Below are positions 1 to 394 of a stretch of 3,308 nucleotides of DNA, one piece after another. Location of the stretch: assembly GCF_003334765.1 (NCBI RefSeq), contig NZ_QOWT01000070.1. The stretch is one strand, 5' to 3'. A model generated the notes under the pieces. That model was not told the DNA's origin and searched no databases. It was given only the letters and a program-made list of their open reading frames with translations. The number at the start of each line of letters is the position of its first letter. The stretch's first letter is position 1. The translations under genes and the position numbers were made by a program. The DNA is from Escherichia coli (GTDB taxonomy: Bacteria > Pseudomonadota > Gammaproteobacteria > Enterobacterales > Enterobacteriaceae).

Positions 1-75
1 TTATCGTGAGAGTAATTCATCGGCACGTTAAATCATATCAGGCGTAATACCACAACCCTTAAGTTAGCGCTTATG
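1..75 (+). mobile_element. IS186 (IS4 family) terminal segment, partial; element continues beyond the window start
   Basis: The reverse complement of 51-75 reads CATAAGCGCTAACTTAAGGGTTGTG, which I recall as the IS186 terminus (recollection, not searched). The boundary sits 22 bp beyond the hokC stop codon (98-100), matching the published K-12 arrangement. GC-rich flank GGATCACTCCCCGCC follows at 76-90, consistent with IS186 target preference. Exact boundary is uncertain by a few bp. Confidence 0.6.
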
Positions 76-97
76 GGATCACTCCCCGCCGTTGCTC

Positions 98-250
98 TTA
101 CTCGGATTCGTAAGCCGTGAAAACAGCAACCTCCGTCTGGCCAGTTCGGATGTGAACCTCACAGAGGTCTTTTCTCGTTACCAGCGCCGCCACTACGGCG
201 GTGATACAGATGACGATCAGGGCGACAATCATCGCCTTATGCTGCTTCAT
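98..250 (-). CDS. hokC: HokC (Gef) small membrane toxin of a type I toxin-antitoxin system, 50 aa
   Basis: Minus-strand translation from ATG at 250-248 gives MKQHKAMIVALIVICITAVVAALVTRKDLCEVHIRTGQTEVAVFTAYESE, which I recognise as HokC/Gef. It has the expected single hydrophobic helix. A good SD (AGGAG) lies about 9 nt upstream on the minus strand (plus coordinates about 260-264). Stop at 98-100. Confidence 0.9.
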   Translation of the reverse strand: MKQHKAMIVALIVICITAVVAALVTRKDLCEVHIRTGQTEVAVFTAYESE

Positions 251-307
251 TGCTCTCTTCTCCTTGACCTTACGGTCAGTAAGAGGCACTCTACATGTGT
301 TCAGCAT
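98..307 (-). CDS. mokC: MokC, 69 aa regulatory reading frame that contains hokC in-frame (translational coupling ORF)
   Basis: ATG at 307-305 on the minus strand, in the same frame as hokC, gives MLNTCRVPLTDRKVKEKRA followed by the HokC sequence (69 aa). This matches the known mokC/hokC arrangement in K-12, where both share a stop codon. No strong SD, consistent with weak regulated translation. Confidence 0.8.
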   Translation of the reverse strand: MLNTCRVPLTDRKVKEKRAMKQHKAMIVALIVICITAVVAALVTRKDLCEVHIRTGQTEVAVFTAYESE

Positions 308-353
308 ATAGGAGGCCTCGGGTTGATGGTAAAATATCACTCGGGGCTTTTCT
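299..353 (+). ncRNA. sokC: SokC antisense RNA (antitoxin of hokC); boundaries approximate
   Basis: Position is inferred from the known hok/sok architecture: Sok is encoded antisense across the mok translation start (here 305-307). A -35-like TTGACC lies at 264-269 on the plus strand inside mokC. The -10 element and exact ends cannot be fixed from sequence alone. Confidence 0.45.
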
Positions 354-394
354 CTATCTGCCGTTCAGCTAATGCCTGAGACAGACAGCCTCAA

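Follow-up and report, generated by a model that had tools for sequence, protein, structure and literature searches.

The window analysed here, a 3,308-nt chromosomal segment of E. coli whose position 1 corresponds to position 16654 of NC_000913 (MG1655), carries the chromosomal hok-family type I toxin-antitoxin locus hokC/mokC/sokC, situated between dnaJ and nhaA. The host of this allele is a non-K-12, phylogroup-A-like E. coli. The features of the window are listed below, the four regulatory elements of the hokC mRNA (tac, ucb, SDmok and dcb) being placed from predicted folds of the intact and interrupted mRNA.

1-74 (or 75), minus strand: transposase-proximal end of IS186, the leftmost feature of the window, containing its terminal inverted repeat (53-74) and the start codon of insL (18-20)
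75-86: one of the two copies of the 12-bp target-site duplication GGGATCACTCCC, on the hokC side; the dnaJ-side copy lies outside the window
75-90, minus strand: remnant of the first 3'-UTR stem-loop of the hokC mRNA, with the 5' arm, the loop and UCCC kept
98-250, minus strand: intact hokC (gef) toxin ORF, 50 aa
98-307, minus strand: intact mokC ORF, which extends hokC in frame at the N-terminus
251-400, minus strand: 5' leader of the hokC mRNA, matched by Rfam RF01794
283-287: dcb, nt 114-118 of the mRNA (predicted)
299-357, plus strand: antisense RNA gene sokC and its terminator hairpin, placed by transfer of the MG1655 coordinates
315-319: SDmok, nt 82-86 of the mRNA (predicted)
343-349: ucb, nt 52-58 of the mRNA (predicted)
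389-400: tac, nt 1-12 of the mRNA (predicted)
412-407, minus strand: putative -10 box (TATAAT) of the hokC promoter, read from the sequence
836-2002: nhaA
2062-2967: nhaR
3005-3232, minus strand: fimbrial-protein pseudogene remnant, lacking its N-terminus and interrupted by IS1
from about 3231: end of IS1

Both the toxin ORF and its in-frame extension are intact, as the initial annotation had stated. HokC scores 85.4 bits against the Pfam family HOK_GEF (PF01848), the match covering the entire domain (model positions 1-42 of 42), and its family membership was taken from Pfam because the NCBIfam Hok models scored below their curated cut-offs (46.8 bits for the Hok subfamily model, under a cut-off of 73). 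The mokC ORF has its in-frame ATG at 307 and coincides with b0018 of MG1655 (16751-16960), and the HokC protein (WP_000809168.1) is common to IS-free strains and to both types of IS-bearing allele described below. In most RefSeq genomes PGAP tags the 153-nt hokC ORF as 'mokC: type I toxin-antitoxin system toxin MokC' and leaves sokC unannotated, so that annotation-based surveys of this locus will be confusing.

The region of sokC folds at -21.6 kcal/mol (z = -4.3) and includes a predicted terminator-like hairpin. The RF01794 match runs from 400 to 248 on the minus strand and covers the full model (118 bits, gathering score 59, E 1e-27); though named 'sok antitoxin', this model matches the hok-mRNA strand and not the strand encoding SokC, and its match ends at the hokC AUG. 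The 5' end of the hokC mRNA is predicted at 400, with the putative -10 box 6 nt upstream. A simple promoter and terminator scan of the window reported neither the hokC nor the sokC promoter, the hokC -10 box being missed because of its poor -35, so that the promoters were placed from the MG1655 annotation and by reading the sequence. The locus reaches slightly past the span of 1-380 originally assigned to it, given the 5' end at 400 and the -10 box at 412-407. Two SNPs fall in this part of the locus, namely U88 of the mRNA (window 313), between SDmok and the mok AUG, and an A at window 432, at about -31 of the hokC promoter. These are common to both IS-bearing orientations and absent from the five divergent empty-site alleles compared, and are also present in at least nine empty-site genomes of identical haplotype.

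The IS186 end begins 22-23 nt past the hokC stop codon, in agreement with the 22 bp first reported. The difference depends on base 75 (G), which is assignable to the IS or to the target: the distance is 23 nt if the element is taken as ATAAGCG...CGCTTAT and 22 nt if this G is included in the IS. Only the first insL codons (1-20, minus strand) lie inside the window, whose IS186 end is 100% identical to many IS186 copies. Two loci identical to the window (L002 and L016) carry the whole 1337-bp IS186, with the 22-nt terminal inverted repeat ATAAGCGCTAACTTAAGGGTTG of window 53-74 at both ends of the element and with insL on the minus strand as a full 1113-nt CDS, annotated as an IS4-like IS421/IS186 transposase (WP_001300563.1). 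The insertion point falls inside the 3'-UTR stem-loop, after nt 326 of the mRNA, and the GC-rich target with its duplicated GGGATCACTCCC is the behaviour expected of IS186, an IS4-family element with duplications of about 10-12 bp. When the IS and one copy of the duplication were removed in silico, the 496-nt product matched at least nine complete genomes in one piece at 100% identity; since the excised sequence occurs naturally, the event was a simple insertion.

A second hit on the same locus is seen in isolates w264 and CRE78, which carry the window-type IS186 and also an IS150 inside the sokC gene and hokC leader (L017 about 2826-4300, equivalent to about window 325). A possible further case is NCTC10973, in which an IS150 is annotated beneath a two-piece match to the window.

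The empty site is present in 3,815 of 5,426 complete E. coli genomes, so that 70% have the intact allele. In this allele the hokC mRNA is 399 nt long, and its stop codon (nt 301-303) is followed by a 7-nt spacer and the stem-loop GGCGGGGA-GUGA-UCCCCGCC at nt 311-330, an 8-bp GC stem of -17.0 kcal/mol. The fbi element CUUCAACGCACCC occupies nt 352-364, starting 49 nt after the stop codon and 26 nt downstream of where IS186 inserts, and is followed by the terminator hairpin of hokC, which also terminates dnaK-dnaJ from the other strand. A similar arrangement was found in reconstructed hokE and in three plasmid hok homologues, where the partner of the 5' end (fbi) lies 48-55 nt past the stop codon; in hokE the tac/fbi pair contains a compensatory change from U7-A to C7-G. 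Within hokC itself, tac, fbi, the 3' hairpin and the ORF are invariant in the five IS-free alleles compared (1943, 536, K-15KW01, O55:H7 DEC5D and AH65).

It had been proposed from the window that the insertion replaces fbi. Neither of the two outcomes that would have counted against this proposal was observed: IS-free hokC loci do not share window positions 1-74, their similarity to the window beginning at position 75, and fbi in intact loci does not fall within 76-97, as it lies past the insertion point. The element is indeed no longer contiguous with hokC in the window allele; however, it has been displaced and not deleted, fbi and the terminator being split from hokC by IS186 and located 1.35 kb away on the dnaJ side. 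Because fbi is separated from hokC in this way, the locus represents a disrupted member of the hok family.

In the minimum-energy fold of the intact 399-nt mRNA, nt 1-12 (tac, GGGUGCUUGAGG) pair with nt 352-364 with an ensemble P of 1.00, and nt 54-58 of ucb pair with SDmok (nt 82-86). The same closed tac/fbi fold is predicted for the window's own haplotype minus the IS, and on these models the combination of tac/fbi and ucb/SDmok pairing is the closed form as described for R1 hok. The tac duplex with the native 3' UTR has an energy of -17.9 kcal/mol, a value reached by 22 of 1000 shuffled sequences, and with IS-derived 3' sequence the energies are -12.9 and -13.3 kcal/mol, equivalent to the shuffle mean of -12.8. 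For each IS orientation the interrupted mRNA was folded with ten different 3' ends, and for nine of these in either orientation tac is predicted to pair with ucb (52-58) and SDmok with nt 114-118 (dcb), and an intact mRNA cut before fbi gives the same fold. Comparison of the folds with and without the IS therefore reproduces the anticipated switch, the closed form with tac/fbi pairing giving way to the open one with tac/ucb pairing. The elements tac, ucb, SDmok and dcb are predicted to be capable of both alternatives. The insertion also weakens the 3' stem-loop from -17.0 to -6.4 kcal/mol.

The functions of these elements have been described for R1 hok, where the tac/fbi/ucb/dcb model was developed and where the 3' stem-loop prevents 3' exonucleases from degrading the processed mRNA; mutants with a weakened stem-loop lose function, which has been attributed to exonuclease attack (PMC9841398). 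By analogy, fbi-tac pairing in the intact hokC mRNA would free ucb to sequester the mok Shine-Dalgarno sequence, giving a closed and inert form that would not bind Sok. Insertion of IS186 into the 3' hairpin would shift fbi and the terminator by 1.35 kb and halve the protective stem-loop, and for this reason the transcript should adopt the open form (tac/ucb, SDmok/dcb) directly; this form is translatable, binds Sok and would normally be reached only after 3' processing. Such mRNA would be removed immediately by SokC and RNase III, so that no stable reservoir of toxin mRNA would build up, and the delayed-activation logic of hok would be lost while a potentially toxic ORF stayed under SokC control. 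This explanation as a whole, in which displacement of fbi and the terminator sends the mRNA straight to the open form, is very likely to be correct. Its most likely outcome, judged from the modelled folds, would be the absence of an inert full-length mRNA reservoir, immediate SokC-dependent decay and an unstable 3' end, and we infer that the hokC locus is inactive or deregulated in the cell. In K-12, IS186 is similarly thought to disrupt fbi and processing of the gef mRNA, which ends inside the IS, and gef with IS186 is still transcribed and regulated by Sof RNA (PMC3562002).

The lesion was initially described as a known feature of K-12, and this is correct to the extent that K-12 has IS186 at the identical site. 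However, the element is inverted there. The insL gene of the window lies on the minus strand and is co-directional with hokC, its ATG being 78 nt beyond the stop codon of hokC, whereas insL1 of MG1655 and relatives lies on the plus strand, converges on hokC and ends 194 nt from that stop codon. K-12 also lacks 88 bp beside IS1 (window 3143-3230), IS1 in MG1655 abutting the equivalent of window 3142. On account of the inverted IS and these 88 bp, the window represents a non-K-12 allele. The two alleles have the same insertion point, the same 12-bp duplication and identical IS sequence, and the flanks of the window and MG1655 differ by only 2 mismatches in 3,090 bp (99.93% identity). Counts of both orientations among the 5,426 complete E. 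coli genomes were made with queries of 100 nt of IS and 100 nt of flank, after shorter 120-nt junction queries had been dropped as contaminated by IS186 junctions at hokE, other hok and plasmid hok loci. The window orientation was found in at most 939 genomes (up to about 17%) and the K-12 orientation in at most 820 (up to about 15%), both being upper bounds because some plasmid hokD-like junctions (about 91% identity) are included; their sum with the 3,815 empty sites is 148 above the total of 5,426.

The two orientations also differ in what lies downstream on the hokC-transcript strand. In the window orientation no convincing intrinsic terminator was found within about 1 kb, and so hokC transcripts probably read into insL in the sense direction; in the K-12 orientation a strong terminator-like site lies about 575 nt downstream. 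A more elaborate proposal is that the hok 3'-UTR hairpin serves as a landing pad for IS186 and that the window orientation yields a hokC-insL co-transcript, placing the transposase under the hokC promoter and under gating by SokC and RNase III, a coupling that would be absent in the K-12 orientation, where insL runs antisense into hokC. This extension is speculative and we regard it as improbable. Separately, the idea that a hokC read-through transcript might fold back and sequester the insL start was considered and rejected, the predicted fold being no better than those of shuffled sequences (z -0.95).

The choice of target appears to follow from the form of the hairpin. All ten IS186 flanks examined have the form GGGG-N6-CCC | GGG-N6-CCCC, these including hokC in both orientations, hokE, a hok next to cysH and a CRISPR array, two plasmid hok loci and IS186C. 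The last of these lies in MG1655 (L018 778-2114) within a GGGG-N6-CCCC hairpin that is the nupC/pdeA terminator, and all three K-12 copies of IS186 interrupt GC stem-loops. The target consensus of the element is reportedly G>=4 N3-6 C>=4. The first 3'-UTR stem-loop of hok mRNAs has the GGGG-N6-CCCC form in every homologue inspected, and IS186 occupies the homologous position in hokE (both orientations), in the CRISPR-adjacent hok, and in P1-like and other plasmid hok loci. The recurrent hits on hokC, hokE and plasmid hok are thus attributed to the hairpin form that IS186 targets. A preference of IS186 for GC-rich targets has been reported (PMC3903273), as have hok homologues at insertion hotspots of mobile elements (bioRxiv 10.1101/527788). 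Target specificity is a sufficient explanation for this recurrence, selection against the toxin being a further possibility.

Other hok loci with IS186 in the first 3'-UTR hairpin are L005, L006 and L007 (523-1859 in each) and L010 (2149-3485), and the plasmid hokD-like loci with the element include a P1-like IncY plasmid. In L006 the IS186 joins a CRISPR array to hok, and the mismatched IS flanks of L006 and L007 indicate IS186-mediated rearrangement.

Other explanations of the window allele differ in how much of the hok regulation they suppose to survive or to have existed. The IS186 end might itself supply a substitute fbi, in that the motif AUAAGCGCU within the inverted repeat can pair with the 5' sequence GGGUGCUU and so keep the closed and open regulation. 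Such pairing is predicted for a transcript ending at window 60, within the inverted repeat, in which nt 2-12 pair with nt 325-335 (mean P = 0.71), and as part of the inverted repeat the motif would be present in both IS orientations. However, no terminator is predicted at the position of window 60, and with longer 3' ends (20 to 476 nt more, in both orientations) the probability of the pairing falls to 0.00-0.04 and tac pairs with ucb, while the tac duplexes with IS-derived sequence are no stronger than those with shuffled sequence. This candidate was therefore rejected, as its pairing with tac requires a transcript end near window 60 and is energetically no better than that of shuffled sequence, and it is highly improbable that the IS restores the switch. 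A different argument is that the insertion was functionally neutral, chromosomal hokC being already a non-functional relic and IS186 merely having landed in a preferred target. Although overexpressed HokC is toxic, intact hokC of ECOR24 is reported to give neither post-segregational killing nor rifampicin activation, and the same is cited for intact chromosomal hokA, hokB and hokC (bioRxiv 10.1101/2025.08.07.668861). Given the inactivity of intact ECOR24 hokC in killing, the insertion may change little phenotypically, and its phenotypic cost may be small. The target motif by itself accounts for the recurrence, and IS-bearing genomes have the same HokC ORF as IS-free ones, with no sign of decay after the supposed inactivation. 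Nevertheless, the invariance of tac, fbi, the 3' hairpin and the ORF in the five IS-free alleles suggests a constraint on the intact RNA, and 70% of genomes retain the intact allele, so that neutrality is somewhat unlikely and loss of the closed form through displacement of fbi remains the preferred reading.

The history of the two orientations may be considered alongside this preferred reading. The window-type and K-12-type alleles could descend from one ancestral insertion that was later inverted in place, and not from two insertions into a hotspot. Both orientations share their duplication, the sequence of the 1337-bp IS and the flanking haplotype, A432 and T313 included, which is consistent with a single event, as are the mere 2 mismatches in 3,090 bp between the window and MG1655. 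However, empty-site genomes with exactly this haplotype exist, providing a naive target for two events and making two independent insertions plausible. Moreover, IS186 is also found in both orientations at hokE and plasmid hok loci, its target is palindromic in form, and inverted repeats of 22 bp are short for homologous inversion. In-place inversion is rather unlikely.

Neither the lesion nor its effect is new: IS186 copies past hokC and hokE, with the attendant loss of fbi, have been on record for K-12 since the 1990s. What the present analysis contributes is, in part, a caveat for annotation, as the window allele is not that of K-12, the window orientation being carried by up to about 17% of complete E. 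coli genomes and that of K-12 by up to about 15%. The GGGG-N6-CCCC hairpin further provides a simple mechanistic reason for the hotspot, which weakens the need to invoke selection for loss of the toxin. Additionally, the empty, sense and antisense alleles on one haplotype form a natural series for testing the roles of fbi and of the 3' stem-loop.

The closest known system is the hokC (gef)/sokC (sof)::IS186A locus of K-12 MG1655 (b4412, b0018, b4413, insL1), which is the same locus with the same insertion point, duplication and IS, and in which fbi and the terminator are likewise displaced and the same open fold is predicted. It differs from the window in its inverted IS with convergent insL, in the terminator-like site about 575 nt downstream, and in lacking the equivalent of window 3143-3230. 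The K-12 hokE::IS186B locus is interrupted in the homologous 3'-UTR hairpin and in the window's orientation, with the insL ATG 77 nt past the hok stop and a duplication (GGGATTACTCCC) analogous to that of hokC; however, it concerns another paralogue at another site (entD-ybdK), whose tac/fbi pair carries the compensatory change. Plasmid R1 hok/sok (parB) has the same gene layout as the window locus, with hok, an overlapping mok and antisense Sok, and shares its RNA logic, including tac/fbi closure, ucb/SDmok pairing, 3' processing, the tac/ucb open form and a GC stem-loop after the stop codon (PMC9841398). In contrast to the window locus, which is chromosomal and without a contiguous fbi, R1 hok has fbi and mediates post-segregational killing. 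Other IS186 hotspots, namely the lon promoter in E. coli B and the CRISPR-I region, similarly present a GC-rich target, a duplication of about 12 bp and repeated use of the site (PMC3903273; bioRxiv 10.1101/527788), although the lon hotspot is a promoter, whereas the target in the window is a hairpin that encodes an RNA structure of a toxin mRNA.
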